Shown here piece by piece: positions 4,835 through 21,338 of a stretch of DNA of 64,000 nucleotides. Position 1 is the first letter of the stretch. The number at the start of each line of letters is the position of its first letter. The DNA is from Escherichia phage vB_EcoP-101114BS3. The notes beneath the pieces are model-generated. The model searched no databases. It was given only the letters and a program-made list of their open reading frames with translations, and was not told the DNA's origin. Position numbers and translations under genes: made by a program. The stretch lies in sequence record MZ234015.1; one strand, 5' to 3'.

Positions 4835-5146
4835 CTACTTCTCCACCACAAAGAGGTTAACTTCAATGAAAGTTTCGTATTGTGTTGACTCCTGCTTACG
4901 GGTGTAGTAGAAATGACGACCTTCTAATGCACCTCCGTACTGAGTGGCACATCTTTTAACCATCTCTTTTATCACATCTACAACTGATTCGCCTTTCCAC
5001 GGACGTAACCCCTGAGTTGGGACTTTTGCTGTACAGGTTACTTGTGTGTAACCTACATCTTGTAGAGATATCTCAAGAATCAGCTTTGCCCAAGCATCAA
5101 AATTAAGCTTGGGGTTATATTTAACTTCAGTTTTGATATCAATCAT
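4835..5146 (-). CDS. hypothetical protein
   Basis: 103-aa ORF directly downstream of polymerase gene. Confidence 0.5.
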   Translation of the reverse strand: MIDIKTEVKYNPKLNFDAWAKLILEISLQDVGYTQVTCTAKVPTQGLRPWKGESVVDVIKEMVKRCATQYGGALEGRHFYYTRKQESTQYETFIEVNLFVVEK

Positions 5147-6993
5147 TAGTGAGTATGATTCCAGTTTAATCCAATCTTACAATCTGATGCAAGAGGACAT
5201 TCCATCTTGAGGTATTCCCCTGCTTTACGAACACATTCTTCAGTGAGGGTACGAAGTTTGTTAACATCATCACGATGTACAGTGAACTGTCCTTCATCAT
5301 GCATGTCAATAACCTTCGCACAACGAACACCATCCCGCTCAATCCATTTATTGAGGAATAGCATTGCATACTTCATAACAATCGCCCCAGCGCTCTGTAA
5401 GAGTGTATTTAAGGCTTTATGGACCATAACCTTTCCAGTTGCATCTCTTCTCATTGTAATACGACGTCCATCCACACCGTAGATATATCCACTTTGCGCT
5501 TTCTCTGTCATACGTTCAATAAGGATTGCAATACAAGGGTTCTCTGCTAAGAATCTTGCTCTCATGATAGCCCCTTCGTCAGAGCCACCACCTACAATAC
5601 TTCCTAACTTAGCGTCACCTGCCCCATAGTTAAAGGCATAGATAAACGTTTTAGCATTATCACGAGTAGGAAGGCCAGCAAGTTTTTGGTTATGTGAGTG
5701 AATATCTCCTTCTAAAAGAATATCTCTATACATAACAGCAGAAGCTAGACCACGTTCAGCTTCTCGTTTCTTAGCCGGGTTGTTTTCTCGCTCTGCTTCA
5801 GCGAGCATCTCACGACATTCTTTAATAAGGTAGTGAGCTAGCATCCTCAGCTCAAGACCAGAGCCATCGTAACCTAAGAAGATTTCACGACCAGCAGGAA
5901 CATAGAACTTATAGGCACCTACGGGTTTGTCTTTCTTGCCCGGTTTTCCCACTTCGTAGATAATGTTAGTACCCTTTCGTACGTAACACCCATCAGGGAT
6001 ATGGTTGGTAATGATGAAAGGATGGTTATGACTATCGTCTGAGGAATAGTCAGATTGAAAAAGACTGCGGCACTCGTGACCAAACAAACCGCGAGAAGGA
6101 ATATTAACAACAATGCGATGTTTAAAACGAAATGTCGGAGTAGCGCAGCTATTAGCTTCGGCGGACAACTTACCATCTTTACGTTCCTTGTCGATAAGCC
6201 CGCTAATCAAACCTAGCCTGTGAGCCGCTACAACGCGTCTCTTAAGCAAACTTCCTACACCCCCTAGCTCACCCCCAAGCCCCTCTTCAAGAGTCTCCTC
6301 AAGGTTTGTAGGGGCTGTGGGCCACTTGTTTGATGTAGCCAAAGCTTTTTTGATTTCATCAAAGGTTACAGGTTTCTTCCTATTCGGATTAAGACCTAAA
6401 CCACTGACGTAGGCTTTCATGTAGTTGACAGTGTGATAACGGAAATGTTTATCCAAAAATCTTCGGATATCAGCATCTATCATCTCCGCTGTCTGTTTCT
6501 CTTTAGCATTACCTCGAATCCAAGCAGAATACCATGCAGAGTATGTACCATACTTCTTCATAGCTCTACGGATTTCAAATGTATTCCAAGGTTTCTTAGA
6601 ATAATTCCACTCTGGAGGTATGAAGCCCTCATCCATCAAGGCTTCTTTAATACGTGCATCTTTCGATGGGTCGAAGTCTACATACTCAACGCAAGTAAAC
6701 GCCCCACCGATATCTTCTCTTTTAAGACCAACCCTATCGCAATAGAGCTGAGGCCACTTCTGTAAAGCACCTGATTTCTTAAAAGGCTTAGCATAAGTTG
6801 AACCATCCACCCGCATTTTAGGGAGGAGAGGAATCAGTTCTTTATCAATATTGACAATAATCTCTTTGAGAAGGTGAACAAACCACCGAGCGTTTCTTCT
6901 GTTGAAGTTGACTCCATGCTTCGCTTGTTTTGAGATTATATCAGCGACTGTCATCTCCGTTATGAAAGGTAACTTATCAGGGTTATCCATCAC
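5146..6993 (-). CDS. DNA polymerase, family A (polymerase domain only)
   Basis: Motif A DGSGLELRMLAH, motif B RDNAKTFIYAFNYGAG, motif C VIDMHDEGQF; no exonuclease motifs in this ORF. Confidence 0.9.
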   Translation of the reverse strand: MMDNPDKLPFITEMTVADIISKQAKHGVNFNRRNARWFVHLLKEIIVNIDKELIPLLPKMRVDGSTYAKPFKKSGALQKWPQLYCDRVGLKREDIGGAFTCVEYVDFDPSKDARIKEALMDEGFIPPEWNYSKKPWNTFEIRRAMKKYGTYSAWYSAWIRGNAKEKQTAEMIDADIRRFLDKHFRYHTVNYMKAYVSGLGLNPNRKKPVTFDEIKKALATSNKWPTAPTNLEETLEEGLGGELGGVGSLLKRRVVAAHRLGLISGLIDKERKDGKLSAEANSCATPTFRFKHRIVVNIPSRGLFGHECRSLFQSDYSSDDSHNHPFIITNHIPDGCYVRKGTNIIYEVGKPGKKDKPVGAYKFYVPAGREIFLGYDGSGLELRMLAHYLIKECREMLAEAERENNPAKKREAERGLASAVMYRDILLEGDIHSHNQKLAGLPTRDNAKTFIYAFNYGAGDAKLGSIVGGGSDEGAIMRARFLAENPCIAILIERMTEKAQSGYIYGVDGRRITMRRDATGKVMVHKALNTLLQSAGAIVMKYAMLFLNKWIERDGVRCAKVIDMHDEGQFTVHRDDVNKLRTLTEECVRKAGEYLKMECPLASDCKIGLNWNHTH

Positions 6994-7006
6994 CCACTCC
7001 TTATAG

Positions 7007-7360
7007 TTATTGGTATATTAAGTCTGTGAATGCTTGGTTGTCTTCAACAATATCTAAAGCTTCATATGAATCAGACAATTCATCCACATAAAAGACTGCT
7101 GGAATATCTTCTGCTCGCTGTCTACGAGATTCCCTTTGTTCATTGATATTTCTTTGAACCTGTGCAAGTTTCATACCCCACACCTGCTCATACAACTCTG
7201 GATATTTGTCACTAACCACTACATAATTTCGAGCTGGTTGGTTTCTATTAATCTTCGCTGTCAACTCAATAAACTGGCGAAACTCTTGAATAGAGAGGTT
7301 GTCATGAATATTATCCCATTTGAGAACGCAGTGACGTTCTAGGCATTGAGGTACTGGCAT
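7007..7360 (-). CDS. hypothetical protein
   Basis: 117-aa ORF. Confidence 0.5.
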   Translation of the reverse strand: MPVPQCLERHCVLKWDNIHDNLSIQEFRQFIELTAKINRNQPARNYVVVSDKYPELYEQVWGMKLAQVQRNINEQRESRRQRAEDIPAVFYVDELSDSYEALDIVEDNQAFTDLIYQ

Positions 7361-7363
7361 AAC

Positions 7364-7633
7364 TTACTCCACTGTCGGGAATGGTTTTAGGTTGTTCATG
7401 GCTGTACGAACATCAGCACAGATTTCAGGATCACGATAAGAGAGGAATTTACCATCCTTACCACGAATCATTACATTAGTCCGTGATGTTTTATTAGGCA
7501 ATAAAGAAATCCCTCCAATAAGATGGTTGGTAGGGTGTTGTCCTTGATTAACCTTGTAGTCATGAGTCTGAGCGTCACCATTAAAGAGATGATCACGAAT
7601 TTGGATTAAGCTAATCTTCATATTATGCACCAA
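7364..7633 (-). CDS. hypothetical protein, tandem paralog of 7623..7874
   Basis: Shared SRTNV.IRG.DGKF.S.RD and NLKPFP motifs. Confidence 0.5.
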   Translation of the reverse strand: MVHNMKISLIQIRDHLFNGDAQTHDYKVNQGQHPTNHLIGGISLLPNKTSRTNVMIRGKDGKFLSYRDPEICADVRTAMNNLKPFPTVE

Positions 7634-7874
7634 AGTTAGGGAAAGGTTTCAGATTTTCAATAGACTTAGCAATACGCTTAGGAACAGCCTTATCACGGAA
7701 GGAGATGAACTTTCCATCAGGACCACGAAGGGCTACATTAGTACGAGCTGTTGTTTTGTTAAACTGAATCATCTCAACAGAGCTTGTAACATTTTCTACA
7801 GGAAAAGTATAGCTCTCAGTTGTGTTCAGAGAAGGGAGGAAATCAGTTACAGTGATGTAAGTTACTTTAGACAT
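7623..7874 (-). CDS. hypothetical protein, tandem paralog of 7364..7633
   Basis: Start moved to MSKVTY (RBS AAGGT upstream); shared motifs with neighbour. Confidence 0.5.
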   Translation of the reverse strand: MSKVTYITVTDFLPSLNTTESYTFPVENVTSSVEMIQFNKTTARTNVALRGPDGKFISFRDKAVPKRIAKSIENLKPFPNFGA

Positions 7875-7892
7875 ATTTATTACCTTAGGTTC

Positions 7893-7925
7893 TATAAAAG
7901 AAAAGGCCACCCGAAATGGGTAGCC
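7893..7925 (-). terminator. terminator-like hairpin (minus strand)
   Basis: GGCCACCC-GAAAT-GGGTAGCC stem-loop with U-tract on minus strand. Confidence 0.45.
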
Positions 7926-7930
7926 TTATA

Positions 7931-8248
7931 TCAACTTGAGCTTAAAGCTCCTTTGCGACCGCCTGCTGATTTTCCAGCACGATCTCCACTTTTGCCGCCG
8001 TTCGAGCGATTTCGAGAGACTGATTCAACACGTAAGTTACTTGACGCATTAGAACCTCCCGACTTGATTGATCGTTTGTGTCCAACATCTTTACCTCGGA
8101 CAGCAGCTTTTCCATCGCGCTTTTCAACGATGCGACGTGCACGGTGGCGCTGAGCATCTCCGCTCTTGCTACCAACGCCGGTCTCACCCCTTGCGATTGC
8201 AGTTCTTCGTTCTTGTGCATAATCACGTTTCGCCTTATCGGTCATCAT
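7931..8248 (-). CDS. basic Arg/Lys/Gly/Ser-rich protein
   Basis: Strong RBS AAGGAG before ATGATG; preferred over overlapping alternate-frame ORF 7942..8226. Confidence 0.45.
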   Translation of the reverse strand: MMTDKAKRDYAQERRTAIARGETGVGSKSGDAQRHRARRIVEKRDGKAAVRGKDVGHKRSIKSGGSNASSNLRVESVSRNRSNGGKSGDRAGKSAGGRKGALSSS

Positions 8249-8292
8249 AACTCCTTAATATATCAGTGTACACTAAGGAGTATACATTATGT

Positions 8293-9030
8293 TTATGATT
8301 TTTCAGATTCCATTGCTTTAACAATAGCTTTACAGAAACCTGAACGAACAATATCATCCGATTCGCCATCTACTAGAGCGGCAAATTCAAATAACTGGTG
8401 ACGGTAGATGAAATCAGTAGCCCAATCAAGACCGCTCTCACCACGCATGTCGTGCTGGTTAGTGTCCCCCATGCAGAACATCTGAGAGGTTTCACCAAGA
8501 CGTGTCATGATTGAATATGCTTCATCAGGAGTAGTGTTCTGGAACTCATCAACAATCACGATAGCATCGTTGAACGAGCGACCACGTAGATATTCCAGAG
8601 GTACGAACTCAATATTACCATTACCTACTTGACATTCGTAGAAACCTTTACCGTAGCGCTGAGTAATAACATCAACGATTGGCATTAGGTATGGTTCAAA
8701 CTTCTCACGAAGCCCACCGGGAAGTAATCCAAGACTATTACCCATACCAACAGCAGGTCGGCTTAGGATAATCTTCTCAATCTTCCCACTCTTCAGAGCA
8801 TCAATCACTGTAGAAGTGATTACGAAGGTCTTACCACAACCAGCAGGAGCATCTGTGAATACAACCTGTTTGGTTTTAATTGCATCAAGCAGCTCACTCT
8901 GGAATTGGTTCTGAGGTACTACCGGCTTAGCAAGAACTACTTCTTCAAATTCCCGCTTTCCTTTCTTGGTGACGAGAGCTTCACGACGTAATTCTCTCCG
9001 TGATGCTTTCCGAGATTCTCTACGACTCAT
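8293..9030 (-). CDS. phoH: PhoH-like ATPase
   Basis: Walker A APAGCGKT and PhoH-like architecture, 245 aa. Confidence 0.85.
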   Translation of the reverse strand: MSRRESRKASRRELRREALVTKKGKREFEEVVLAKPVVPQNQFQSELLDAIKTKQVVFTDAPAGCGKTFVITSTVIDALKSGKIEKIILSRPAVGMGNSLGLLPGGLREKFEPYLMPIVDVITQRYGKGFYECQVGNGNIEFVPLEYLRGRSFNDAIVIVDEFQNTTPDEAYSIMTRLGETSQMFCMGDTNQHDMRGESGLDWATDFIYRHQLFEFAALVDGESDDIVRSGFCKAIVKAMESEKS

Positions 9031-9208
9031 TTCCTACCTCCGTGTTCTTCATATAAGAAGCTACAGGATTTACACTCTGAGCAATGGATACCTATAACCT
9101 TAATTTCGACAAACTTCTTATTCTTCCCTTTAGTCGGGGAGCCTTTGGCAAGCTCCCGTATTACTTTCGAGTCCAAATGGAGAAGAGTTGATTCACATTT
9201 AAAACATT

Positions 9209-9529
9209 TCAGATTGATTTGTCCTTATGTAAACGGTATACTTCAGTAGCCATACAAGCTATACGCTCGTCATGTGGGAGATGCATACCAGTAGAGCCGT
9301 TCCATCCTTCGAACTCTGAATCAAAGAATCCAATAGGCTCGGGATACATCTCTTGCAAGGTGGTTAAGTCATCAGCCACTTGTTGCCACTTATCGTCAGA
9401 CCAGATTGGGTCATCCAACCAATAATACAAATAGGAGTGGATAAGCATCTGTGTTCTATGTCGTTTAATCACTTCAGCAGGACTGATTTCATTTCCGTTA
9501 CCAGTCCTAAATGTATTATTGTTGATCAT
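9209..9529 (-). CDS. hypothetical protein with LigA domain-Ia-like motif
   Basis: SYLYYWLDDPIWSDDKWQQVADDL resembles YLYHVMDAPEIPDAEYDRL of NAD-dependent ligase domain Ia; only 106 aa. Confidence 0.4.
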   Translation of the reverse strand: MINNNTFRTGNGNEISPAEVIKRHRTQMLIHSYLYYWLDDPIWSDDKWQQVADDLTTLQEMYPEPIGFFDSEFEGWNGSTGMHLPHDERIACMATEVYRLHKDKSI

Positions 9530-10005
9530 TCCAAAACCCTTTCTTCTAAATCATAAAAGATTTGATTTGTCCCATTATTCTCAACAAGCACTGTTCCATT
9601 ATCTAGCAGGGTAGCAACTTGGGAATAAGGAATGTTCTTTAACATCAGAGCATTAATGGTCGGCTTGTTTTTGAAGTAAGCGACAGGCTCAACATAGAAG
9701 GAAATCCCACGACTTCCTTTAATTGGGGTGCTTGAAGATAGAACCCAAATTGTTTCTGGCTTGTCTATTTCCTTTTCAACACCAACCTCAACAAGAGAGT
9801 CAGCAGCGAAACCTACAGGACGCCTAGAAGAACCAAGCAACCGAACATATCCCGGTAATTTTGACATATTAGACCAACTACCAGTGTTTTCATTAAACAC
9901 AGGTCTTACATCACCATATGCCCAAACCAGATTATCATAGTCACGGGCTATGTATTTAACCCAATCAGGAACATCATACTCCCTTCCTTCAAAAATAGCT
10001 TTCAT
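9526..10005 (-). CDS. hypothetical protein
   Basis: 159-aa ORF. Confidence 0.5.
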   Translation of the reverse strand: MKAIFEGREYDVPDWVKYIARDYDNLVWAYGDVRPVFNENTGSWSNMSKLPGYVRLLGSSRRPVGFAADSLVEVGVEKEIDKPETIWVLSSSTPIKGSRGISFYVEPVAYFKNKPTINALMLKNIPYSQVATLLDNGTVLVENNGTNQIFYDLEERVLE

Positions 10006-10200
10006 TTAGATAACCTTGTGCTTATAGATGTTAGGGTTGTAGTAATGCAACCAGTTTATGTATTGTTTCTGTTCAAGGTAGTGTCTGCAATCATGACAAA
10101 AAGCATGACCCAAACCTGTTTCCTCGTTCAGCTTGAAGTTGATAAGAAGCTTCTGCTTTTGACAGAAGCTACATGCTTTAGTGGGCTTCACGTAATGCAT
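10006..10200 (-). CDS. small Cys-rich (zinc-ribbon-like) protein
   Basis: CSFC...CHDC motifs; start uncertain because the long ORF overlaps thyX. Confidence 0.35.
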   Translation of the reverse strand: MHYVKPTKACSFCQKQKLLINFKLNEETGLGHAFCHDCRHYLEQKQYINWLHYYNPNIYKHKVI

Positions 10201-10828
10201 CCCATGAGATTGGGAAAAGTTTACGAAGCTCTTCATCAACAGTTGATGCGAACACTCGTACTTCATACTGAGCATGGTCGGACAGTCGCTGACGACATAA
10301 CTCTGACCAGCCATATAAAGAACCTGTCCACACCCACTCAGTGATCATACCTTGAGGTAGAACGAATCGGGCTTGCTCTGGAGCAATAAACTTAATCAAC
10401 TCATCATATGACTCAAGAGCTGTTTCATATGCCCGATTAATCAGAACTAGTGCAGAGTTTTGCGCTCCCGTGGTGAGGAGATTCCCCGCACCTGCATGGA
10501 GGTCCGAAGGTCTTTCAAAAATCTCTTTAGGGATGAAGAGTTCAACTGCTCCATCTTTATACCGCCGGGACATTTCGTTCCACGAGAATCCAACTTGATG
10601 CTTGCCCAGCTGTCTCGCAATTGCGATTGGCGCTTTGCATCGGAAGCTAATTGTCGGATGGCGGAATGGTGTGACATGCTTTTCTCTGGCAAGGAACTTG
10701 ATAAGGCGTTCATCTCGTTCATTTAACTCTCCTTCACGAGTAACCCCAAAGGAAACTCGAGCTGCATTAACAACAGATTTATCAGAACCCATTGCTTCAA
10801 TTAGTGTTGCTTGTAATTGTTCGTTCAT
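10178..10828 (-). CDS. thyX: flavin-dependent thymidylate synthase ThyX-like
   Basis: ThyX-like APIAIARQ...H..GFSWNEMSRRY; canonical RHR is KHQ here. Confidence 0.8.
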   Translation of the reverse strand: MNEQLQATLIEAMGSDKSVVNAARVSFGVTREGELNERDERLIKFLAREKHVTPFRHPTISFRCKAPIAIARQLGKHQVGFSWNEMSRRYKDGAVELFIPKEIFERPSDLHAGAGNLLTTGAQNSALVLINRAYETALESYDELIKFIAPEQARFVLPQGMITEWVWTGSLYGWSELCRQRLSDHAQYEVRVFASTVDEELRKLFPISWDALREAH

Positions 10829-10842
10829 CCTTGAATTCTTCC

Positions 10843-11058
10843 TTAGTAATGAATCTTTTTATAAATCAGGTTGCTTCCACTTTCTGTTTCAATCCCTTTC
10901 TGGATTGTAATCTTAGAAGCACCGGTATTAGCAATTTTTAAAGCTCGTTTAAAGCGGCGAGCCTCTCTCCGTGTTGTGTATGAGGAGAAGCTAGGGATTG
11001 TACTATCAAAATTAAACCACTTAACTACCCAAAAAGTAATCCAAGGTTTCTTTTCCAT
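10843..11058 (-). CDS. small protein, TRQEAR-motif family (3 copies)
   Basis: Paralog of 12923..13138 and 13138..13350. Confidence 0.5.
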   Translation of the reverse strand: MEKKPWITFWVVKWFNFDSTIPSFSSYTTRREARRFKRALKIANTGASKITIQKGIETESGSNLIYKKIHY

Positions 11059-11059
11059 A

Positions 11060-11335
11060 TTAAATACCTTTCAGAGCTGTATCTAAAAACGCACGGAGGT
11101 TTGATTCAGTTTGCATACCGGACAAGCTGTAGTGAGCACCACTGTTCATGTTAGGAACCACAAAGGCTGGGATACTGCGAACACCATATTCAATGGCTCG
11201 CTCTCGACCATTACCTTCAGAGATATTTACTTCTTCAACTTCTACGTTGTAATCAGCTACAACTTTCTTAAACACAGGAGCCATAGCTGCACACGGAGCA
11301 CAGGAATTACTATAAAACTTAATTACTTTACTCAT
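11060..11335 (-). CDS. thioredoxin/glutaredoxin-like protein
   Basis: CAPC active-site motif near N-terminus; start moved to MSKVIKFY with AAGGA RBS. Confidence 0.7.
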   Translation of the reverse strand: MSKVIKFYSNSCAPCAAMAPVFKKVVADYNVEVEEVNISEGNGRERAIEYGVRSIPAFVVPNMNSGAHYSLSGMQTESNLRAFLDTALKGI

Positions 11336-11525
11336 TTTATTCCTTGTTAATAAACAGATTGATATGACGTTGGGTAGCAGGAACAACAATAAAAGATTTA
11401 TACTGACCTTTTGCTAAGTCATGAGCAATCTTCTTTGTCTGACTAAGACCCATTACACAGCCACTAACAATAATAGCATGTGCTTGTAGCTCTTCAGGTA
11501 GGTTTAGTTTCACTCTTTGGGTTCC

Positions 11526-11711
11526 TTATAGCATACAAAGAATAATAACAAGAGGTAGTGTTATAGCAAAATGTACCAGAACAACACTACCTAGCTTGAT
11601 AGCTTTAACATCCTCTTCTGCTGGGTTTTCTTTAATTGCTAAATTTCGAGCTTTATATATAACAGTACCAACTATTAACGACCACACGGCCCACACAATC
11701 AGTGAAATCAT
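11526..11711 (-). CDS. small membrane protein, tandem paralog
   Basis: Two predicted TM helices; similar to 11721..11942. Confidence 0.45.
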   Translation of the reverse strand: MISLIVWAVWSLIVGTVIYKARNLAIKENPAEEDVKAIKLGSVVLVHFAITLPLVIILCML

Positions 11712-11720
11712 ATCAAACCC

Positions 11721-11942
11721 TTATGCAGTCAACAGGTGGAGAAGGAAAGGAATGACAACAGAGAAGACTACCAGAGCAATGCTGCCATGTTTAATGGGTT
11801 TAGCGTCATTCGGGTTCTCTTTAAGCATCTGTTTCTGAGCTACATAAACGATACCGCCAACAAAAATTGCCCATACAGACCATACGATTGCTGAAAACAT
11901 ACTCATATCCTTATAAAGAAGTTCGCCCCACCTCTTGAACAA
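11721..11942 (-). CDS. small membrane protein, tandem paralog
   Basis: VWSVWAIFVGG...KENPNDAKPIKHGS pattern shared with 11526..11711. Confidence 0.45.
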   Translation of the reverse strand: MFKRWGELLYKDMSMFSAIVWSVWAIFVGGIVYVAQKQMLKENPNDAKPIKHGSIALVVFSVVIPFLLHLLTA

Positions 11943-11963
11943 AGAGACAGGGCGGAGGTTTGA

Positions 11964-12530
11964 TTAGTAAGACACATCACCACTGGAGTGGGACATGTTG
12001 CTCTTGACGAAGTAACAGAACTTGCCAAGACCTTCATTAATTTCTTGAAGCATACTCTGGTCCACTGGATAGGTGCACAAGTCTGAATCAAACTCATCCA
12101 TCTTCTCAATGATACACATAAGAGTCATGCACATGTCGGAAAGCATACCGTCCATGTCAAGATCAGCGTTACCTTCTCGGAACCAAGCATGACCTAAATA
12201 ATTACTAGCAGTAGCATCCACTTTAACACAATGAAAGCGCATACGCTCTGCTATTCGGTCGCCTGCCTCACGAGCATAATCTTCTAGTTCATCGAACATA
12301 CCATGAACACCTTGGAAACCAGCTCCAGAGACGTTCCAGTGGTAGTTCTTTGCTTTGATGTGTAGAAGTTCAAGGTTAGCTTGCACACCACACAAGATGT
12401 GTTCTAAGCTGTTACCGCTAATCAGTTTATTCATTCCCTCAAGACGAGAGATAGAAGAGTCAGTAGCAGAGAATGGGTTGCTAGAACCCACTCGTGTTAG
12501 TTCTGGTAAGTCGAAGACATTATTATGCAT
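11964..12530 (-). CDS. Dps/ferritin-like protein
   Basis: HWNVSGAGFQGVHGMFDE...AER matches Dps ferroxidase-site signature; start uncertain (12530 or 12434). Confidence 0.5.
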   Translation of the reverse strand: MHNNVFDLPELTRVGSSNPFSATDSSISRLEGMNKLISGNSLEHILCGVQANLELLHIKAKNYHWNVSGAGFQGVHGMFDELEDYAREAGDRIAERMRFHCVKVDATASNYLGHAWFREGNADLDMDGMLSDMCMTLMCIIEKMDEFDSDLCTYPVDQSMLQEINEGLGKFCYFVKSNMSHSSGDVSY

Positions 12531-12870
12531 TAGGTGCATCCCCTTCTAAGTTAGTTGAATTAGCTACATTACGAGCAATGTTATCCATGACCTGCTGTGT
12601 AATAACAATGCAATTCTGAGGGTCTACTGATTTAGAACGCCCCATCTCAGGGTCATAGACTTTGACTCGCTTGGCTGTTGAGCCAGTAACTTGCAACACT
12701 TTGAGAAGATAGCCTTGGTTTCCAATAGACCATGCAACAACATCACGATTCTTGATATAACGACCAAGCATGTCACGATGATAGAACTGCTGCATAACTT
12801 TAGCTTTGCTAATCTCTTCAGATGGCGGGGCCACTTTACTCAAATCTAACATAACTCTCTCCTGTTTCAT
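12523..12870 (-). CDS. hypothetical protein
   Basis: 115-aa ORF. Confidence 0.5.
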   Translation of the reverse strand: MKQERVMLDLSKVAPPSEEISKAKVMQQFYHRDMLGRYIKNRDVVAWSIGNQGYLLKVLQVTGSTAKRVKVYDPEMGRSKSVDPQNCIVITQQVMDNIARNVANSTNLEGDAPNA

Positions 12871-12922
12871 ACAATATTCTTATACTGTATATACATTTGA
12901 GAGTTATCATATCTACTACCAA

Positions 12923-13138
12923 CTAGTAATAAACCTTGCTGGATATGAATCCAGCACTGTTATGGATATTTTCAATCCAACGATGAATCTCCACCTTTTC
13001 AGCGATTCCTAAAGCTTTTGTAGCTTTTATAGTTTTCTTAGCAAGACGAGCCTCTTGTCTTGTGTTGAATAATTGAATACAATCACCACCAAGAGCTTTG
13101 TTAGCCCATTTAGTACGAACTGCCCATAATTTATCCAT
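12923..13138 (-). CDS. small protein, TRQEAR-motif family
   Basis: NTRQEARLAKK...KVYY C-terminus. Confidence 0.5.
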   Translation of the reverse strand: MDKLWAVRTKWANKALGGDCIQLFNTRQEARLAKKTIKATKALGIAEKVEIHRWIENIHNSAGFISSKVYY

Positions 13139-13350
13139 TAGTAATGTACCTTTCCGCTGATATAGAAACGACCTGATTTAAAGTCTTGAGCTTTGTGGAT
13201 AGTGATCTTATTAATTGTGCTTTCACAACTTAATAAGAACTTCTTATGAGCGCGAGCTTCTTGACGGGTATTCCTAATACCCATTGACTCTGTACCACTG
13301 CTCCAGTGAATACGAACTACCCAACGTCTTTTCATTGTTCCAAACTCCAC
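13138..13350 (-). CDS. small protein, TRQEAR-motif family
   Basis: NTRQEARAHKK...KVHY C-terminus. Confidence 0.5.
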   Translation of the reverse strand: MEFGTMKRRWVVRIHWSSGTESMGIRNTRQEARAHKKFLLSCESTINKITIHKAQDFKSGRFYISGKVHY

Positions 13351-13541
13351 TATCTGTCAACCGATTTAGGGACAAACTGCATTACACAGACCTGACTACG
13401 AGGGAGATTTATTTCACAAGCGGCTCTTCTCGTCTCAATCTTAACGCTAGAATCTGGACCAACGTTAGATATAAATACTCCCATAGCAAATGCCCCAACT
13501 ACAAAACCTATAGCTAAGTAAGTAGCTTTTTCTTCTTTCAT
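13350..13541 (-). CDS. small membrane protein
   Basis: 63 aa with hydrophobic helix. Confidence 0.4.
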   Translation of the reverse strand: MKEEKATYLAIGFVVGAFAMGVFISNVGPDSSVKIETRRAACEINLPRSQVCVMQFVPKSVDR

Positions 13542-13546
13542 CTTGG

Positions 13547-14080
13547 TTATACACCCTTAGATGCAACTACACCATTACTGCCGTTGTATCGACCCTTCAC
13601 TGCATAAGAGTCATCACCAGCGTGAGAGTGTTCGAACATAACCATTTGACCAACACGCATCCCAGCACGAACTCGTAAGCTATGATTATGGGTAACGTTA
13701 TGAAATTCAAAGGTTAGTTTACTGCTGTTAAACCCTGCATCAGCCCAACCAGCATGGAGGTGGTTTAAACCACAACGAGCCATTGAGGAGCGAAGTACAA
13801 ACAGGCTTGAGATGTTATCTGGAAGGTTAAACTCTTCCATTGAGTGCGCTAAGAAGAATTGCCCCGGAGTGATAACAATACCATCTTCAGGGATTTTTAC
13901 TTCTTTCCACTTGAGGTTTTCTTTAGCATCAATGTCAACAATTCCGTCAGCCTGTTCTTCAACAAGGATAGTATCACCAATACGGATATCCACGCTAGCA
14001 GCGTTAACATATTTATGCTCCGCATCTAAAAAGCCATTATCAATAACGCTGTGTAATTCTTGAGAACCTAAAAGACTCAT
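13547..14080 (-). CDS. dcd: dCTP deaminase (dUTPase superfamily)
   Basis: Dcd-like LRSSMARCGL and C-terminal pattern, 177 aa. Confidence 0.8.
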   Translation of the reverse strand: MSLLGSQELHSVIDNGFLDAEHKYVNAASVDIRIGDTILVEEQADGIVDIDAKENLKWKEVKIPEDGIVITPGQFFLAHSMEEFNLPDNISSLFVLRSSMARCGLNHLHAGWADAGFNSSKLTFEFHNVTHNHSLRVRAGMRVGQMVMFEHSHAGDDSYAVKGRYNGSNGVVASKGV

Positions 14081-15540
14081 GAGTTTCTGTTTCCTTGTAC
14101 AGATGATGCCAAATTATTAATCATGTTACGAGCTGTTTCACGAGATAGTGTAACACCTGCTAAGTTGTTATGAAGCTCACCAGATAGCTCACGAGCAGCA
14201 GCTCGAAGTTCTGTACCAAGTGTAGTATCGGAGTGAGCCAAACCATTACGACGACTATAAGGTCGAGGAGCTTCGTTAGCGTCATTAGCCAATGATGCAA
14301 AACCAATATGAGCAGCTTCACGAGACGCTATAGTTGACACTCGATCTTCCGTAGGGGTTGGCAAATCACCAACTTCTACACGTTCTATATCACCAGCACG
14401 TAGACCCTGAACGACTGAGCTTACTGTTTCCCATGAACGACGAGAACGCTGTAAATCACCCATTGACGGAGAAGAAGCAGGTCGAACAGTTACTCCACCT
14501 GTATCATGAGTGACATGCCATGTACGAGTATCCATTCCAGAAGAGCGTGCACTACCAAAACTGCCAGTGAAAGTGTCACGAGGTGCCATTGTAGGAGGAA
14601 CTGCGAATCTTTCCTGTTGCCAAGAATCGCGTCTGTTAGTTCCCGGAGTCCAAGGCTGCGTGATTGCTTCAGCACCTATAGTGGTTAATCCGCTAGACCA
14701 TTCTGTCTGTAGGTTAACTTCCTCGTCCAGATAACTACGACCCCTTTCCTGAGGAATGTTTAATATAGTTTCCATCATCTTCAGGGTATAATGACGACGC
14801 TGATTCTGATATAAATTTACACCAGCCATAGGTCCAACTAAATCACTAATCAGGTGAACTTCTGGCTCACCGAAAGCTCCCATTGCAAGGTGCATATATT
14901 CGGTAGAACTGCTATAAACTGCAACAGTTGCTTCAGGCCACTTCTTGTGAACATACTTCATTTCACGACCAGATACCACAGGAATGTCACGAGTGTATGA
15001 CATTGCAAACAAACCTTCGTTTGACACATACATGTCATCAAGAGACATGAACCCCTGACAGATCATAGGAAAGCGACGGCTTAAAGTATCCATATCCAAA
15101 GGTAGATTAATCATCATCTGGATTTTAACTTGATCAATCTCAATTTCCAGAATCTCTTGGAAAGTGAAAAGTGCTTCAGCGTAAGTTGTCCCACTAACAG
15201 GCTGAACTAGGCGAGATGTAGTTTGAAGCCCTTTACTCTCTGTCCAAGACAAGAAGTTGTCAAGGAACAGTGCAGCATTCATCACGTTAGCAGGGTTGTT
15301 TTCCTGACGGGTGTTCCAACGAAACCCTCCTTGGACTAGGAAGATATCCACATCATTCGGAGTTCGGTTCTGGAAGAACGTATCACGGATAGCACCACCT
15401 GCAATAACAGGGTAGATACCATCAGGAACTACGTTGTCTCTGATCAGATTGCGAATCAGATCAAGCCCTACGCTGAGGGCTTCTCCTTCTTGAAGGTTTA
15501 ATTCAGACAATGGAATCTTAATCATTTCTACATTTTCCAA
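14077..15540 (-). CDS. Pol-beta-superfamily nucleotidyltransferase (CCA-adding-enzyme-like head) with long low-complexity C-terminal region
   Basis: VIAGGAIRD...DVDIF motif; C-terminal ~180 aa Ser/Arg/Thr-rich. Confidence 0.55.
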
Positions 15541-16076
15541 TTTAGAGATGGGGGATTCTTATAATCAAATCCAGCCATTTGGCAAAGACACATGTAAACC
15601 TTAACTGTCAAGTTAACGTCTTGCTCACAATACGTGAACATGTCTTCAGTGAATGCATCCCATGCTTCTTCCTGTTCACCATAATCACCCTTCAGCTCTC
15701 CCAGAAATTCGCCCCATTGCTTGAGGCCATGACCGCGAGGGCCATGTCTAGGGTCGCCTTTGGGGTATTCTGGACTATCACCAATACGGTCAGGCTTGAG
15801 ATATCTACTCAGGCACAAAGTATCGAAGACGTTAAAGCGAAAAGGTATCACATGAGAATAAAACTTAAACAAAGCAGGAAGGTCAAAATCAATAATATTG
15901 TGACCTATTACTACATCAGCTTCTTTCAGTTTGTGTAGTGCTTCTTCAATTTGGTGAGGGCGATACCCCCACCGCTCTCCAGATAATACATCAAATATCC
16001 AGATACACCAGACATTCTGAATACCATCATAGAGATTATCACCCTCGATATCAAACGCATACAGTTTCTTTACCAC
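15528..16076 (-). CDS. 3'-5' exonuclease (DnaQ-like), stand-alone
   Basis: Exo I FDIEGD, Exo [10 protein letters not shown], Exo III YCEQD. Confidence 0.8.
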
Positions 16077-17860
16077 GGACGTGCCTCCCCTTCCTGTGCA
16101 AGTAAGGAAGCTGCATCCTCTCCATTGGTAACGGTAAAAGGATGCTCTTCATCAACTTCATGATCTTCTCGTTCTACAAGACGACCTGTTTCGTTAATGT
16201 ATTTGGTATAGCAAACCCCTGTCTGTCCATAGTTACGCTCTTTGAGCAGTCGTATGATTGACAAGTTTTTACCTAACCCATCCGCTTGTTTGTTACGTTC
16301 AAAACCAATAATACACTGACACCAGCGCATCAATGAACGTGAACCAGTAAACTGTACTTCTTTAACCTGACCACCTTCTTCGTGAGGTGCACCACCTGCC
16401 GGAGCGTTCAAGTGAGATAATACAAAAGCAGTGAAGTCTAATTCCTTACACATACCAGCAAGCTCTGAAGCAATCTTGCTGATTTCTGTGTTTACCTCAG
16501 ATGGGGTTAAGTGAGATACCAATGCAGTGATGTTATCAAGAATGATAAATTTACACTGATTCTCAACTACCCAAAAGCGAATACACTGCTTAATGTCTTC
16601 CCACTCGTTCTGCCCAAAGTTGTCATACAAGAAAAACTTATCAGCGTATCGAAGTGCTTCATCTCGTAGCTGGCTTTCTTCGTACTCAACATCTGGTCGG
16701 TGGAATGGAATAGATGCAGATTTACCTGCAATGTTCTTAACAGACATGCCTACCTTCTCTTCCAAGAAGAAGCCACCACCATTAAAACCATGCTCAAGGC
16801 AAAGCCATGCTACTAGTTCGTGTGCGATTAAGGTTTTACCTGAACCAACACCACCGCCGATTGCAACCATCTCTCCCCAACGAATACCAAAGGTCATGTC
16901 GTTAAGAGTTTTCCACGGATAAGGAATACCCCATTCCGCTTTCTTCAGAGCATCTTCGAGGCAATCAAAAACTGTAACAGCTCCAGCAGGAGATTCCCGC
17001 TTAGCTGAATATTTCAGATTGTTGAAAAGCTCTTGACCTCTCCCTGCAAGTAACATGTCGTTTGCATCTTTGATTTCCTTTTCTTGTCCGTTATAAGTGA
17101 ACGTACCTTTTGGAATCCTTGCAAACTTAACATGCGGGTACAGAGAACGACCCTTAGTTAAAGCAATCTCACCTGCATCATCATTGTCCATGCAGAGTAC
17201 AATCTCCTCGAAACCATTAATAAAATCACGGTTTCTTGATAATACAGAAGAGATTGAACCTGCACCGAACGGAAGAGAGACGCAAGCAGGTTTGATGTTA
17301 GTTGCGTTTGTAAACGCGGTAAGTACGTGGAACCCAGACATACAAGAGAGAGGATCTTCAAAGATGAAGAGTTTCTTGTTGTATACGTCACCACGTTGTG
17401 CTTGAGCCATACCAAACAAGTCGGCTTCTTTCACATTACCTACATAATAGAACTTCTTGCTGTCTAGAAGTTTTACTTCATATCCAACAATGTTCCCATC
17501 ACGTTCACGAGGGAAGAAGTAGCTGTCAGGAGTTTGACCATCTGTTTGGCTTAAACCGATACGGCATCCATAACGTTCAGATACAGCTTTAGGAATTAAG
17601 CGACGAGTCAACTCTCCCTGAGGAAGCTCTAAGCAATCGTCTAAGACTTCTCGGAGTTCTTCAGGGGACAGCTCTTTCTTTTCATTAGGAGTGGGCGTCG
17701 TTCCTTTCTCGAAGATTTCATACGCACCACATCTGTTACATGAACCCCACTCCTCACCGGACTCTTCATTTCGGAAGAGAATCATGTGATTGCGGGTCTT
17801 ATCACGACCATGAGAGATACACTCTTTACAGCCTGTGTCTCCCAAAATGATCTTTGACAT
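16070..17860 (-). CDS. primase-helicase (T7 gp4-like)
   Basis: N-terminal Cys4 zinc finger, TOPRIM-like region, Walker [10 protein letters not shown]. Confidence 0.85.
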
Positions 17861-17895: not shown

Positions 17896-18102
17896 TTAGT
17901 AAAACGATCGTATTTCTTCCCACACATCATCTTGCAAGTTTCTAAAACCCTGCAAGGTTTGCTTTGTTCTGTGAATAAATTCTTCAGAGTGCTTATCAGG
18001 TGTGAGCATACTGACAAACTTTTCATAGCGATTAATCTTCCACCGCATCTTCAAGTAGTCAGATTCCAGCTTTCTTAACTTCTGCCTGTCAGTTACTGTC
18101 AT
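17896..18102 (-). CDS. hypothetical protein
   Basis: Start moved to MTVTD to limit overlap with upstream gene. Confidence 0.35.
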   Translation of the reverse strand: MTVTDRQKLRKLESDYLKMRWKINRYEKFVSMLTPDKHSEEFIHRTKQTLQGFRNLQDDVWEEIRSFY

Positions 18103-18520
18103 CCTTCTCACCTGCCAGATATGCTGTCCAGTCACCAGATTCAACCAGAACATCTTGTTCTTCGTCGATGTGATAAATCCACGCTTCCACAGTTTCACCG
18201 CTGTCCAATAATACTGGAATCAGTGTACGCTTGTAAAAGGTGTATGGGTTATCATTACCACGATGACCTTCCAGACCGTCATACGGACCTTCCAGACCAG
18301 CTTGGGTTGTTTCAAAGACTTCTACACGAACAGGCTTACCATTGCTGTCATGCTCCAAAGATACACTTGGGAAGTATGCTGTGCAATACTGATACAGGTT
18401 ACAGTTGTTTACTGTCCACCCTTCACCAATAGACACACCACCTGCACGAGCATTGATAGCGTGGTTGTGTTGACCTTTACGAAGAGAACCATACGTTGCA
18501 ACTAATACTTTATCAGACAT
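18089..18520 (-). CDS. gamma-glutamyl cyclotransferase-like (AIG2/GGCT fold) protein
   Basis: N-terminal VATYGSLRKGQ motif typical of GGCT/AIG2-like proteins. Confidence 0.6.
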   Translation of the reverse strand: MSDKVLVATYGSLRKGQHNHAINARAGGVSIGEGWTVNNCNLYQYCTAYFPSVSLEHDSNGKPVRVEVFETTQAGLEGPYDGLEGHRGNDNPYTFYKRTLIPVLLDSGETVEAWIYHIDEEQDVLVESGDWTAYLAGEKDDSN

Positions 18521-18524
18521 TACA

Positions 18525-18722
18525 TTACCTTTTGTTTAAAATTTCTTTTGTACAAGAAGTCCCGTTACACACGAGAACTGTTTGAGTTATAGAATCGACA
18601 ACTGTTACATGGCTGCCGCATTGAGTTATGATTTGACCTCTCCCTGAATCTTTAGAGATGCATTCATCAGCGGCGATCGCTGACACACTGAATAAGGAGA
18701 GGAAAAATAGAATCTTTTTCAT
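18525..18722 (-). CDS. small secreted Cys-rich protein
   Basis: Signal peptide MKKILFFLSLFSVSAIAA; 4 Cys in ~45-aa mature part. Confidence 0.5.
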   Translation of the reverse strand: MKKILFFLSLFSVSAIAADECISKDSGRGQIITQCGSHVTVVDSITQTVLVCNGTSCTKEILNKR

Positions 18723-18728
18723 GGCTGC

Positions 18729-19145
18729 TTACCAATCATGTTGGAAACCAGAATATCCAGAGAAGATGATTGATCGGATTGGCTTTTCAGGGAATCCTTC
18801 AAAACATCCCTTAATGGCTTTCTTGGTTTCATCAGAAATTGACTCTTTTTCACCAAACCAATATTCTTCAAAAATATCAGAGAAGATATAAGTTCGGTAT
18901 CTTTCCAAGTCATAAAAACCTTCCACTGCACTTGTAACAGCTCTACTAATTACACTTGAAGCTACAGGAAATAAGTCACCGTGTTCCAGAAACAAGCACC
19001 AACGATCAAAGAGAGGAATCTCTTCATCTTTCAGAAGACTTTCTAACTCTTCCTTTGCCTCTTTCTTGTGCTTCTCAAAGAGGTTTTTGGAATACTCTAC
19101 ATCTAAGATACGACTTTTAAACATATCCAGTTTATTATTAACCAT
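18729..19145 (-). CDS. hypothetical protein
   Basis: 138-aa ORF. Confidence 0.5.
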   Translation of the reverse strand: MVNNKLDMFKSRILDVEYSKNLFEKHKKEAKEELESLLKDEEIPLFDRWCLFLEHGDLFPVASSVISRAVTSAVEGFYDLERYRTYIFSDIFEEYWFGEKESISDETKKAIKGCFEGFPEKPIRSIIFSGYSGFQHDW

Positions 19146-19202
19146 TTTACAACCTCTAGTTAAATTCGAACTAGCCTCCTCTTTCGAAGAGGCTAAAGCA
19201 AA

Positions 19203-19388
19203 TTATTCTACTTCGAAGTGTTTGATCACACCAGTCAGTACATCAGATTGGAATGTACCCACTAGCTCTGTACCTCGGAAAAAGTTAACACTTGTTCCAA
19301 GTGATTCAAAGCGATCTGCTTGAATGTCCAGAGATTGAATATTTCCTTCTGCTGACATTGTACGAAACATGATTGTGTATTTATTCAC
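19203..19388 (-). CDS. hypothetical protein
   Basis: 61-aa ORF. Confidence 0.35.
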   Translation of the reverse strand: MNKYTIMFRTMSAEGNIQSLDIQADRFESLGTSVNFFRGTELVGTFQSDVLTGVIKHFEVE

Positions 19389-19627
19389 AGACTCGTTACT
19401 CCCTTATCTGCTTGTGCAATTGCGATGATACGCTCAGCACATTCCATTGAATACTTATCACCTCGTTTGAGGAAGGTGATGATTGCAGAGAACTGATTAC
19501 CAATCATTCTCTTATTTGTGATACCAAACTCTTCACAGAGTTGGTTGATAGCTTTACGAGAGCCTACAATCAGAGGCTCTTTTTCTTCGGTCATTCCACG
19601 GCTGATCAAATCTTCGATAGACAACAT
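19385..19627 (-). CDS. hypothetical protein
   Basis: 80-aa ORF. Confidence 0.45.
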   Translation of the reverse strand: MLSIEDLISRGMTEEKEPLIVGSRKAINQLCEEFGITNKRMIGNQFSAIITFLKRGDKYSMECAERIIAIAQADKGVTSL

Positions 19628-19653
19628 TACAAATTCCTTTTTGTTTAATTTAA

Positions 19654-20889
19654 TTACAGAGTTACTGCTACTTCGCTACCTTCAACATTGACAGACTCTA
19701 ACTTGCGAGGGTTATGAATCTGGACTGGATTGACCGGAACGTTCCAACCACTGCGGTAGAAGTTACGACCATCACAGAACAAAATGACATTGGCAGACAT
19801 TGCATTCGGTTGAAGGTTGTTGTGGACGTGACGGATATCTGCAATCCAGTAACCACGAGACAAAGTGTAACCAGTAGGTGCATTACGAATAGTTTGAGTA
19901 TTCATCTGACCTTCTAGCTGCATTTCTTCAGGAACTACATCTACCGAATCAACCGGCTGTGCTACTTGTCCTTCCAGTGCAAAGTTTTCATCATCAGCAC
20001 TTTCAATATCATCCACTAACTCACCGTCTCCATCTTCAATCGGAGTCTGGTAAACCACTTTATACTGAGGAGTATAGAGAGGGTTCTGAGCTTTAACAAA
20101 CTCAAGAATGTTATGACGGTAGGTATCCAGAGTTGTACCAGTCAGGCCCGGTGCTGTATTAACTTCCAGTACCCACGCTTCTTGACCTTTGGTGATAATA
20201 TCAACTGCACCGAAATCCAGACCCATTGATTCAACAGCTTTCACTGCATTGATCAGAGAGGCGTCATTCGGAGCATCTGTGAAGGAGCTTGAGTAAACCC
20301 AGCCAGTGTGGTGATTACGAATATCTTCACGATAGTTAGGGTCTTCGCGATAACCATTGCGACGAATCTTCTTCTGAACATAGGTGATTACACCTTTGAA
20401 CACATGGACACGCCACTCACGACGTGGGCCTTGAATGCCTTTAGTGTACAGTTCAGCTCGACCAAGACCATCACCCGGTTCTACAACAACAATGCCCGAA
20501 CCAGAGTGACCAGTCAGCTCATGGCGCTCATACACAATATTACCAGTGTTTGACCACTCTTGAGCAGTCTCTTGAACATCTGTGTATTCCACAGTTTTAA
20601 CACCTGCTTGGTCCATCACGCTGAAAGCACGACGTTTGTTCGCTGCCATATGTAAGGCTGCGGTACGGTTAAGGACGGTTGCAGAACCAAAGAATGATTC
20701 AGGATAGCGACGGTTCCCGTAGTTAACAACCACATCACCTTCACGAGAACGCCAGCGGCTATTCTCTGAAAGAAGACCCATCACGTTAGCATTGATGCGT
20801 TCATCACGGATAGTATCACTGATAGCAGATACTAGAGCGTTAACAGAATCAGACGGGCCATACGGAAGAACACGGATACGAGTAGTCAT
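19654..20889 (-). CDS. ATP-grasp family ligase
   Basis: ATP-grasp C-terminal signature WVLEVNTAPGL; 411 aa. Confidence 0.7.
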   Translation of the reverse strand: MTTRIRVLPYGPSDSVNALVSAISDTIRDERINANVMGLLSENSRWRSREGDVVVNYGNRRYPESFFGSATVLNRTAALHMAANKRRAFSVMDQAGVKTVEYTDVQETAQEWSNTGNIVYERHELTGHSGSGIVVVEPGDGLGRAELYTKGIQGPRREWRVHVFKGVITYVQKKIRRNGYREDPNYREDIRNHHTGWVYSSSFTDAPNDASLINAVKAVESMGLDFGAVDIITKGQEAWVLEVNTAPGLTGTTLDTYRHNILEFVKAQNPLYTPQYKVVYQTPIEDGDGELVDDIESADDENFALEGQVAQPVDSVDVVPEEMQLEGQMNTQTIRNAPTGYTLSRGYWIADIRHVHNNLQPNAMSANVILFCDGRNFYRSGWNVPVNPVQIHNPRKLESVNVEGSEVAVTL

Positions 20890-20891
20890 TT

Positions 20892-21327: not shown

Positions 21328-21338
21328 AACTATACCTC

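Follow-up and report, generated by a model that had tools for sequence, protein, structure and literature searches.

The window analysed here, a 64,000-nucleotide stretch of Escherichia phage vB_EcoP-101114BS3 (MZ234015.1), represents Escherichia phage vB_EcoP-101114UKE3 (Suseptimavirus, Gordonclarkvirinae, phiEco32-like) in circularly permuted form. Two of its stretches, the polymerase gene (1,848 bp) and 21.6 kb of structural region, were compared with a deposited genome of the Gordonclarkvirinae/Kuravirus-like group, and both are 100% identical. A preliminary description had placed three open reading frames here, for a family A DNA polymerase, a stand-alone exonuclease and a thioredoxin-like protein, and all three are present on the (-) strand as follows, together with the primase-helicase gene and the motifs and segments discussed below.

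5146..6993 (-), family A DNA polymerase subunit (thumb, palm and fingers only), corresponding to T7 gp5 residues 213-704
5287..5307 (-), polymerase motif C, DMHDEGQ (H565, D566, E567)
5617..5664 (-), polymerase motif B, RDNAKTFIYAFNYGAG (R444, K448, Y452)
5827..5880 (-), polymerase motif A, FLGYDGSGLELRMLAHYL (D376, E381), with core FLGYDGSGLELR
6271..6825 (-), structured thumb module between long helices H32-56 and H242-268 (polymerase residues 57-241)
6661..6822 (-), thumb-tip segment homologous to the T7 gp5 thioredoxin-binding region (polymerase residues 58-111)
11060..11335 (-), short thioredoxin, 91 aa, with CAPC at 11291..11302
15528..16076 (-), stand-alone 3'-5' proofreading exonuclease subunit of the DEDDy PolA type (182 aa), corresponding to T7 gp5 residues 2-198
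15618..15632 (-), Exo III motif YCEQD (Y149, D153), DEDDy type
15879..15905 (-), Exo II motif GHNIIDFDL (N60, D65)
16041..16055 (-), Exo I motif FDIEG (D9, E11)
16070..17860 (-), T7 gp4-type primase-helicase (Pfam DnaB_C and Toprim_2)

The polymerase gene lies downstream of the exonuclease gene on the same strand, across a measured gap of 8,535 bp that agrees with the ~8.5 kb first estimated. The overlap described between the exonuclease and primase-helicase genes is also real: the GTG start of the former overlaps the stop codon of the latter, the two genes sharing 7 nt (cGTGGTAA) with GGGGAGG upstream, and translation of the exonuclease is likely coupled to that of the primase-helicase. The C-terminal tail of the primase-helicase is acidic and ends in Trp; the tail of T7 gp4 is likewise acidic and aromatic-ended. 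The order of helicase then exonuclease, with the polymerase further downstream, is kept in APT65 and Privateer, and the exonuclease/primase-helicase adjacency also occurs in one LUZ24-like phage. A ribonucleotide reductase turned up neither among the scanned window genes nor in the public annotation consulted.

Two halves of a T7-type polymerase

The polymerase reading frame scores 85.5 bits against Pfam DNA_pol_A (PF00476; cut-off 34.3, E 4.5e-24, residues 363-612), and the catalytic residues of motifs A, B and C (D376/E381, R444/K448/Y452 and H565/D566/E567) are invariant across 81 homologues. By its motifs and its score above the gathering cut-off, the protein is a family A DNA polymerase. 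The best PDB match is T7 gp5 (phmmer, E 5e-33), the profile aligns to T7 gp5 213-704 with a probability of 100 (hhalign, E 1.3e-54), and the AF2 model (pLDDT 92.5) has T7 gp5 1sl1_A as its top Foldseek match (E 1e-26), the top 27 matches all being T7 gp5. By sequence and by fold alike it stands nearest to gp5, the mark of a T7 gp5-type replicative PolA. The Pfam scan reported no exonuclease family in this reading frame and, because the profile aligns to gp5 only from residue 213 on, no exonuclease remnant is present in the polymerase. The earlier picture, in which the polymerase has motifs A, B and C but lacks Exo I-III motifs, thus holds; a degenerate exonuclease fold, proposed as a check for residues 1-200, is absent, residues 1-270 being thumb. 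The reading frame itself stands, but its start at 6993 (615 aa) probably does not: ATG 6990 (614 aa), right after AAGGAG, is the probable true start, and the public record also annotates the gene from there.

The exonuclease reading frame scores 24.2 bits against Pfam PF01612 (cut-off 23.6), matches PHROG 403/38876 'DNA polymerase exonuclease subunit' at E 3e-37, and its profile aligns with T7 gp5 residues 2-198 with a probability of 99.5% (hhalign). The residues D9/E11, N60/D65 and Y149/D153 are invariant across 35 homologues, and these DxE, NxxxD and YxxxD signatures identify a DEDDy 3'-5' exonuclease of the PolA type. The protein is, as first described, a stand-alone exonuclease with all three motifs, but the label 'DnaQ-like' applies to it only at the superfamily level. 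A DnaQ/Pol III epsilon (DEDDh) identity is excluded, since Exo III reads YCEQD rather than HxxxxD.

Because the exonuclease aligns to gp5 2-198 and the polymerase to 213-704, the T7-type enzyme is cut at the exonuclease/thumb linker, and by profile alignment the two reading frames are consecutive halves of one gp5-type enzyme. The same order is seen in phrog_17, a single DNA-polymerase profile in which columns 670-826 correspond to the exonuclease and columns 837-1233 to the polymerase. A single polypeptide carrying both domains, as in T7 gp5, is rejected for this phage, the reading frames being separate and 8.5 kb apart. Both halves look functional, judging from the invariant catalytic residues and a confident polymerase model nearest T7 gp5. 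Elsewhere the two halves occur as one enzyme. The exonuclease profile gathers 4,488 relatives, some of them stand-alone proteins of ~170 aa and others 570-730 aa long. Nine proteins with the exonuclease at the N-terminus were sampled, and each contains a PolA domain as well: it is near-complete in five (604-682 aa) and partial in four, of which three measure 443-471 aa and the fourth, with an HNH domain, 1,005 aa.

The split has been described before. It is reported for phiEco32 (Savalia et al. 2008, cited in PMC3517423) and for all LUZ24-like phages, and the literature extends it to the entire group and its relatives (PMC9965538; PMC3517423). Polymerase, 3'-5' exonuclease and 5'-3' exonuclease are said to be encoded separately 'in all group members' (PMC9965538), and PHROGs already names families 'DNA polymerase exonuclease subunit'.

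The polymerase thumb and the phage thioredoxin

Polymerase residues 58-111 match T7 gp5 ~262-338 (hhalign): the ~76-residue thioredoxin-binding insertion of T7 has a homologous, conserved counterpart in this thumb, 20-odd residues shorter (hereafter the TBD-like segment). A weak phmmer stretch pairs residues 65-133 with T7 296-360, and the stretch KREDIGGAFTCVEYVDFDPS aligns to T7 TREYVAGAPYTPVEHVVFNPS. Conservation of the segment across 81 homologues (mean top-residue frequency 0.58) matches that of the core thumb helices, and P58, P70, F99 and F107 are invariant. Such conservation is what would be expected if some thioredoxin binds the polymerase.

The thumb module as a whole (residues 57-241) reaches an AF2 pLDDT of 92.7 when modelled alone. 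Nothing in the PDB matches it significantly (best E 1.4), and BFVD holds just two matches at E <= 0.001, both unnamed. Residues 134-241 are absent from T7, and hhalign leaves residues 145 to ~200 without a T7 counterpart. Residues 1-270 hold, within the thumb, both a TBD-homologous segment and a lineage-specific module.

That the phage encodes its own thioredoxin-like protein is borne out by the CAPC motif and by a score of 46.5 bits against Pfam Thioredoxin (PF00085; cut-off 23.5, E 3.9e-12). With C12, C15 and the cis-Pro P56 invariant in 13 aligned sequences, the CxxC motif, cis-Pro loop and score above cut-off together make the protein a thioredoxin. The protein is 28% identical to E. coli TrxA in an alignment that starts at TrxA residue 24, and its match begins at Pfam profile position 22; it is without the N-terminal ~20 residues of TrxA and does not have the N-terminal strand and helix of the full-length fold (TrxA 1-23). 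Its next closest phage homologues are found in T5-like phages. The Gordonclarkvirinae records that were examined keep it; a thioredoxin that outlasts the reductase could hint at a different job. A function as processivity factor was proposed for this lineage in 2021 (PMC7881722). According to a 2026 preprint, the role of a phage-encoded thioredoxin had never been investigated before that work.

Proposed assembly of the replicase and possible place of the thioredoxin

We put a probability of about 0.7 on a split T7-type replicase that proofreads in trans and has a gp4-like helicase partner, with the thioredoxin a redox donor and not an obligatory subunit. The gene of a T7-type replicative polymerase is split at the surface linker between exonuclease domain and thumb, and we infer that the 182-aa exonuclease and the 614/615-aa polymerase reassemble non-covalently as a gp5-like heterodimer, so that proofreading would be supplied in trans. 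The heterodimer and the gp4-like primase-helicase would act together as a T7-style replisome, and the TBD-like segment and the extra ~100-residue thumb module would most likely give the grip on DNA, possibly aided by a thioredoxin. Because the split is real and the reading frames are consecutive gp5 halves, assembly of exonuclease and polymerase in trans is the most reasonable reading, and a two-subunit enzyme is likely. The multi-subunit replicase of the preliminary description is to this extent favoured by the alignments; its thioredoxin subunit is neither supported nor excluded. Our literature search found no report of interaction or activity for these proteins in this lineage.

For the thioredoxin itself, the data lean towards a function in redox or dNTP supply. 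It would most likely be a redox-active hydrogen donor for dNTP synthesis and is not thought to be an obligatory replicase subunit. Because the phage encodes no ribonucleotide reductase, host NrdAB would have to serve as the client, and for the same reason that client is only assumed.

It seems to us improbable that the phage thioredoxin is instead a dedicated, redox-independent processivity subunit docking on polymerase residues 58-111, an arrangement that would join exonuclease, polymerase and thioredoxin in one three-gene enzyme and free the phage from host trxA. The docking site would be a T7 TBD homologue as conserved as the thumb core, yet it is 20-odd residues shorter than that of T7, and LUZ24-like phages (105 Pseudomonas records) keep it although this thioredoxin has no detected homologue there. 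In E. coli TrxA, W28, W31 and G74 matter for T7 binding, and by alignment the phage protein is without equivalents of all three. Its redox CxxC is invariant, whereas the T7 role is redox-independent. Persistence argues the other way: the Gordonclarkvirinae records keep the thioredoxin although this genome is without a ribonucleotide reductase, record counts for thioredoxin and polymerase are equal in Proteus (8/8) and Cronobacter (6/6) phages, and the protein is conserved in all C3-morphotype phages examined (PMC7881722). In relatives, however, the gene keeps company with ribonucleotide reductases; a related short thioredoxin adjoins nrdA/nrdB in APT65, and Privateer has NrdAB and NrdD in the same genome. 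The precedent of Syn5, a T7-like cyanophage with its own thioredoxin, also weighs against such a subunit, for there a redox role is favoured and the host thioredoxin, not the phage one, is predicted to dock on the polymerase (bioRxiv 10.1101/2025.10.05.680603).

That same prediction agrees with recruitment of host E. coli TrxA to the TBD-like segment as in T7, with the phage thioredoxin unrelated to replication-fork mechanics, as does conservation of the segment whether or not a lineage carries a phage thioredoxin. We nonetheless regard this as doubtful: the segment is shorter than its T7 counterpart and leads into a large structured module that T7 does not have, because of which the thumb may grip DNA without a cofactor, and the literature yielded no genetics bearing on whether phiEco32-like phages depend on trxA. 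Very unlikely, in our estimate, is an exonuclease with no polymerase partnership, acting by itself or together with the primase-helicase (for example in trimming primers or flaps, in repair or in degrading host DNA) and leaving the polymerase to replicate without proofreading. Its main partner could differ because its gene is co-located with the helicase gene and not the polymerase gene, overlapping the former, adjoining it in all relatives examined and lying 8.5 kb from the latter. A metagenomic protein, P0286, even fuses a DnaB-type helicase C-terminus to the exonuclease, but the junction resembles a frameshifted run-through of two neighbouring genes, with the exonuclease Met and N-terminal motif intact. 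The protein moreover falls within the family of T7-like gp5 exonuclease domains, and even the PP motif at its C-terminus lines up with the gp5 linker. It co-occurs with the polymerase in every relative examined and, according to PMC9965538, in all group members.

Relation to known systems

The split polymerase and the thioredoxin-processivity hypothesis are both already in the literature, and the split, described for this phage group since 2008, matters little as a discovery. A natural T7-type polymerase cut at the exonuclease/thumb linker is, nonetheless, a ready-made system for trans proofreading in family A enzymes. For the role of the thioredoxin, an E. coli phage that pairs a T7-like polymerase with a thioredoxin of its own but has no ribonucleotide reductase would likewise offer a clean genetic test case. 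Were the three-gene replicase true, it would be, to our knowledge, the first demonstrated phage-encoded thioredoxin serving as a processivity subunit.

The phiEco32, Gordonclarkvirinae and Kuravirus-like phages have the same genes in the same order, with polymerases 86-100% identical and no substantial difference from the window. LUZ24-like Pseudomonas phages (Bruynoghevirus: LUZ24, PaP3, tf) show the same split, as 'DNA polymerase part I / part II', and their exonuclease adjoins the primase-helicase as it does here. Their polymerase (~545 aa) is ~40-42% identical to ours and keeps the TBD-like thumb segment, but is without the equivalents of residues 147-168 and 390-417. T7 gp5 is the closest solved structure for both halves, with the same motifs, the same exonuclease type and a homologous TBD region, and T7 shares the gp4-type primase-helicase. 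The two differ in that gp5 is one chain of 704 aa where the window phage has two genes, in the extra ~100-aa structured thumb module and insertions at 327-371 and 390-421 of the window polymerase, and in the thioredoxin, which T7 does not encode. Syn5 has a T7-type polymerase and its own thioredoxin, as here, and raises the same question of donor or processivity factor; its polymerase is unsplit, however, and it has its own ribonucleotide reductase, an enzyme not found in the window genes scanned or the public annotation. In the E. coli Pol III core (alpha plus the DnaQ subunit epsilon), proofreading is supplied by the separate epsilon subunit, as proposed for the present pair, although alpha is an unrelated, family C polymerase and epsilon a DEDDh exonuclease, whereas the window phage would combine a family A polymerase with a DEDDy exonuclease.

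Genome context and replication genes

The polymerase gene of the window is 100% identical to that of vB_EcoP-101114UKE3 (MZ234017 / NC_070982), a Suseptimavirus of the Gordonclarkvirinae and a phiEco32/Kuravirus-like prolate podophage of E. coli. Record positions 1-21,602 of that phage match window positions 42,399-64,000, which makes the window a circular permutation of its 75.7-kb genome. The deposited linear genome ends inside the window at about 42399 (record position 75747 joined to 1), and genes for a 5'-3' exonuclease and a dNMP kinase (record 31360-32770) lie just beyond the left edge. All genes of the first ~42 kb are on the minus strand, including the three which a preliminary description, made from sequence alone, had put forward as parts of a possible multi-subunit replicase. 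These three ORFs were located at the coordinates it gave:

5146..6993, minus strand: polymerase; Pfam DNA_pol_A at residues 363-612, E 4.5e-24
11060..11335, minus strand: thioredoxin; Pfam Thioredoxin, E 3.9e-12, with a CAPC site
15528..16076, minus strand: exonuclease; PF01612 at 24.2 bits, just above the cut-off of 23.6

Several other genes of the region were noted. The 487-aa product of 14077..15540 (minus strand), encoded between the genes for the exonuclease and for dCTP deaminase, has a match in PHROG 12715 'nucleotidyltransferase' (E 2e-165) and in no Pfam family. Its N-terminus (GGAIRD...DVDIF) resembles pol-beta-type nucleotidyltransferases, and its C-terminal ~200 residues are low-complexity and S/T/R/G-rich. 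The flanking genes are adjacent in Proteus phage Privateer and separated by one ~131-aa ORF in Aeromonas phage APT65, with nothing of 487-aa size in the interval. A 106-aa protein (9209..9529, minus strand) belongs to PHROG 6466 'DNA ligase' (E 2.8e-38), and its equivalent in phage SU7 is annotated 'NAD-dependent DNA ligase'; it is far below the length of a complete ligase. The replication module also contains a Dps/ferritin-like 'DNA-binding protein' (11964..12539, minus strand; Pfam Ferritin E 7e-8, PHROG 3636). A Dps-like protein is likewise encoded close to the thioredoxin in Privateer, and the corresponding position in APT65 carries a gene annotated 'DNA-binding protein'. A phiEco32-type block of peptide-modification-like enzymes (18089..28158, minus strand) comprises a gamma-glutamyl cyclotransferase, a RimK-like ATP-grasp enzyme, a 667-aa glutamine amidotransferase, an amidoligase and a COOH-NH2 ligase; the amidotransferase and ATP-grasp enzyme are common to APT65 and Privateer, and the cyclotransferase is found in Privateer.

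A T7-type polymerase encoded by two genes

The key residues of polymerase motifs A (FLGYDGSGLELR), B (RDNAKTFIYAFNYGAG) and C (MHDEGQ) do not vary across 81 homologues, and Pfam reports no exonuclease family in the ORF, in agreement with the preliminary description. Translation probably starts at the ATG at 6990, after AAGGAG. The nearest structures to the AF2 model (pLDDT 92.5) are T7 gp5 chains. A decayed exonuclease fold in the N-terminus, which the preliminary description had suggested looking for, is ruled out: hhalign places residue 10 at T7 gp5 residue 213, the model has thumb helices there, and the first 270 residues are thumb.

The window copy of the gene is intact, unlike the broken copies in close relatives. 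In SU7 (L002 13001..15452) a homing endonuclease gene interrupts it again after about residue 565, and tblastn coverage indicates the same break in phage ECBP2. Several metagenomic relatives (P0014-P0017) have polymerase fragments of 440-457 aa that span ~73% of the protein.

The exonuclease strongly matches PHROG families named 'DNA polymerase exonuclease subunit', and its Exo I (D9, E11), Exo II (N60, D65) and Exo III (Y149, D153) residues are invariant in 35 homologues. Together with the PF01612 match, this upholds the earlier assignment of a stand-alone exonuclease with all three motifs; the label 'DnaQ-like' holds at superfamily level only, as the protein is of the PolA-type DEDDy class and not DnaQ/epsilon DEDDh. 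The overlap it described with the T7 gp4-type primase-helicase gene (16070..17860, minus strand) is also real. At cGTGGTAA the GTG start of the exonuclease and the stop codon of the primase-helicase overlap, and a GGGGAGG Shine-Dalgarno sequence lies upstream; this suggests that the exonuclease is translationally coupled to the primase-helicase.

The C-terminal tail of the primase-helicase (33 residues; 16073..16171, minus strand) is acidic with an aromatic final residue and resembles the T7 gp4 and gp2.5 tails that bind polymerase. One 481-aa metagenomic protein (P0286) joins a DnaB-type helicase C-terminus to the exonuclease family (residues 306-469). It was rejected as evidence of a helicase-exonuclease fusion, since its junction looks as if two neighbouring genes had been read through with a frameshift and is probably an artefact; it does place helicase before exonuclease in a distant relative as well.

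T7 gp5 is the best solved relative of both chains. In profile comparisons, the exonuclease family corresponds to gp5 residues 2-198 (probability 99.5%, E 3.6e-22) and the polymerase family to residues 213-704 (probability 100%, E 1.3e-54), and the two ORFs occupy adjacent blocks of a single PHROG polymerase profile, phrog_17 (columns 670-826 and 837-1233, respectively). The split therefore lies in the surface linker that joins the exonuclease domain to the thumb. Searched against 1.8 billion representative proteins, the exonuclease profile had 4,488 matches, a mix of stand-alone proteins of ~170 aa and proteins of 570-730 aa in which the exonuclease is N-terminal. A DNA_pol_A domain is present in all nine sampled proteins that have an N-terminal exonuclease: near-complete in five (604-682 aa), partial in three of 443-471 aa and in a 1,005-aa protein that also has an HNH domain. 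Within the phage collection, exonuclease relatives extend from Gordonclarkvirinae through the LUZ24-like 'DNA polymerase part I' to the polymerase exonuclease domains of T7, T3, KP32 and cyanopodoviruses. Judged by sequence, the two halves are one enzyme in other genomes.

Homology, motif conservation, co-occurrence and synteny make an exonuclease-polymerase heterodimer the most likely arrangement. The chains would re-associate into a gp5-like enzyme that proofreads in trans and would work with the gp4-like primase-helicase, whose C-terminal tail is acidic with an aromatic end.

The thumb and the phage thioredoxin

The Pfam match and CAPC site substantiate the claim of a thioredoxin-like phage protein. 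It is a short form with 28% identity to E. coli TrxA, beginning at TrxA residue 24 and thus missing the strand and helix that come first in TrxA. All 13 aligned sequences (the window protein, eight metagenomic homologues, the Privateer, APT65 and T5 proteins, and E. coli TrxA) share C12, C15 and the cis-proline.

The reading that this protein is the polymerase processivity factor appears unlikely, and our preferred reading is a redox role that serves dNTP supply. The thumb bears on the question. Polymerase residues 58-111 align to the T7 thioredoxin-binding region (about 262-338) and are 20-odd residues shorter, with KREDIGGAFTCVEYVDFDPS opposite T7 TREYVAGAPYTPVEHVVFNPS in the profile alignment. 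Conservation of this segment in 81 homologues (0.58) equals that of the core thumb helices and exceeds that of lineage-specific insertions (0.27-0.37), so some thioredoxin, host or phage, may bind there. Alternatively, the thumb may need no thioredoxin, given its large extra module: residues 134-241 are helical and absent from T7. The tip module (57-241) modelled alone is confident (pLDDT 92.7), with no significant PDB match and only two matches at E <= 0.001 in the BFVD viral structure library, both unnamed.

By tblastn the thioredoxin occurs in 594 phage records (E <= 1e-5), those of Gordonclarkvirinae and prolate podophages of Proteus and Cronobacter, then T5-like phages (~35% identity). 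The polymerase family occurs in 251 records (E <= 1e-40), 105 of them Pseudomonas (LUZ24-like) phages; Pseudomonas does not figure in the top ten organism names of the thioredoxin matches. Residues 147-168 and 390-417 are missing from LUZ24-like polymerases, which keep the segment that aligns to the T7 thioredoxin-binding region. These two insertions are found in the thioredoxin-bearing lineages and may track the thioredoxin, a pattern with which both phylogeny and genome size are confounded. We found nothing in the literature on trxA dependence of phiEco32-like phages.

Gene neighbourhoods bear on the favoured role in dNTP supply. In APT65 a related 76-aa thioredoxin immediately adjoins nrdA/nrdB, and in Privateer the gene lies two genes past the exonuclease in a genome with NrdAB and NrdD. 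Among the window ORFs scanned, none encodes a ribonucleotide reductase, a PAPS reductase or a peroxiredoxin, and neither these genes nor the public annotation consulted yielded a ribonucleotide reductase or any other classical client of thioredoxin.

Comparison with described phages

Separate polymerase and 3'-exonuclease genes were described for all LUZ24-group phages in 2012 (PMC3517423), and that paper credits the same organisation to a 2008 report on phiEco32. Thioredoxin was found conserved in all C3-morphotype phages examined in a 2021 study (PMC7881722), which hypothesized that it couples with the T7-like polymerase for better processivity. A 2026 preprint on cyanophage Syn5 (bioRxiv 10.1101/2025.10.05.680603) reports that the Syn5 phage thioredoxin is redox-active and that in structure prediction it was the thioredoxins of the host that docked on the Syn5 polymerase, and not that of the phage; its authors favour a ribonucleotide-reductase role. 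The picture of a split polymerase with a phage thioredoxin is accurate, but it is usual in this group of phages and has been described before.
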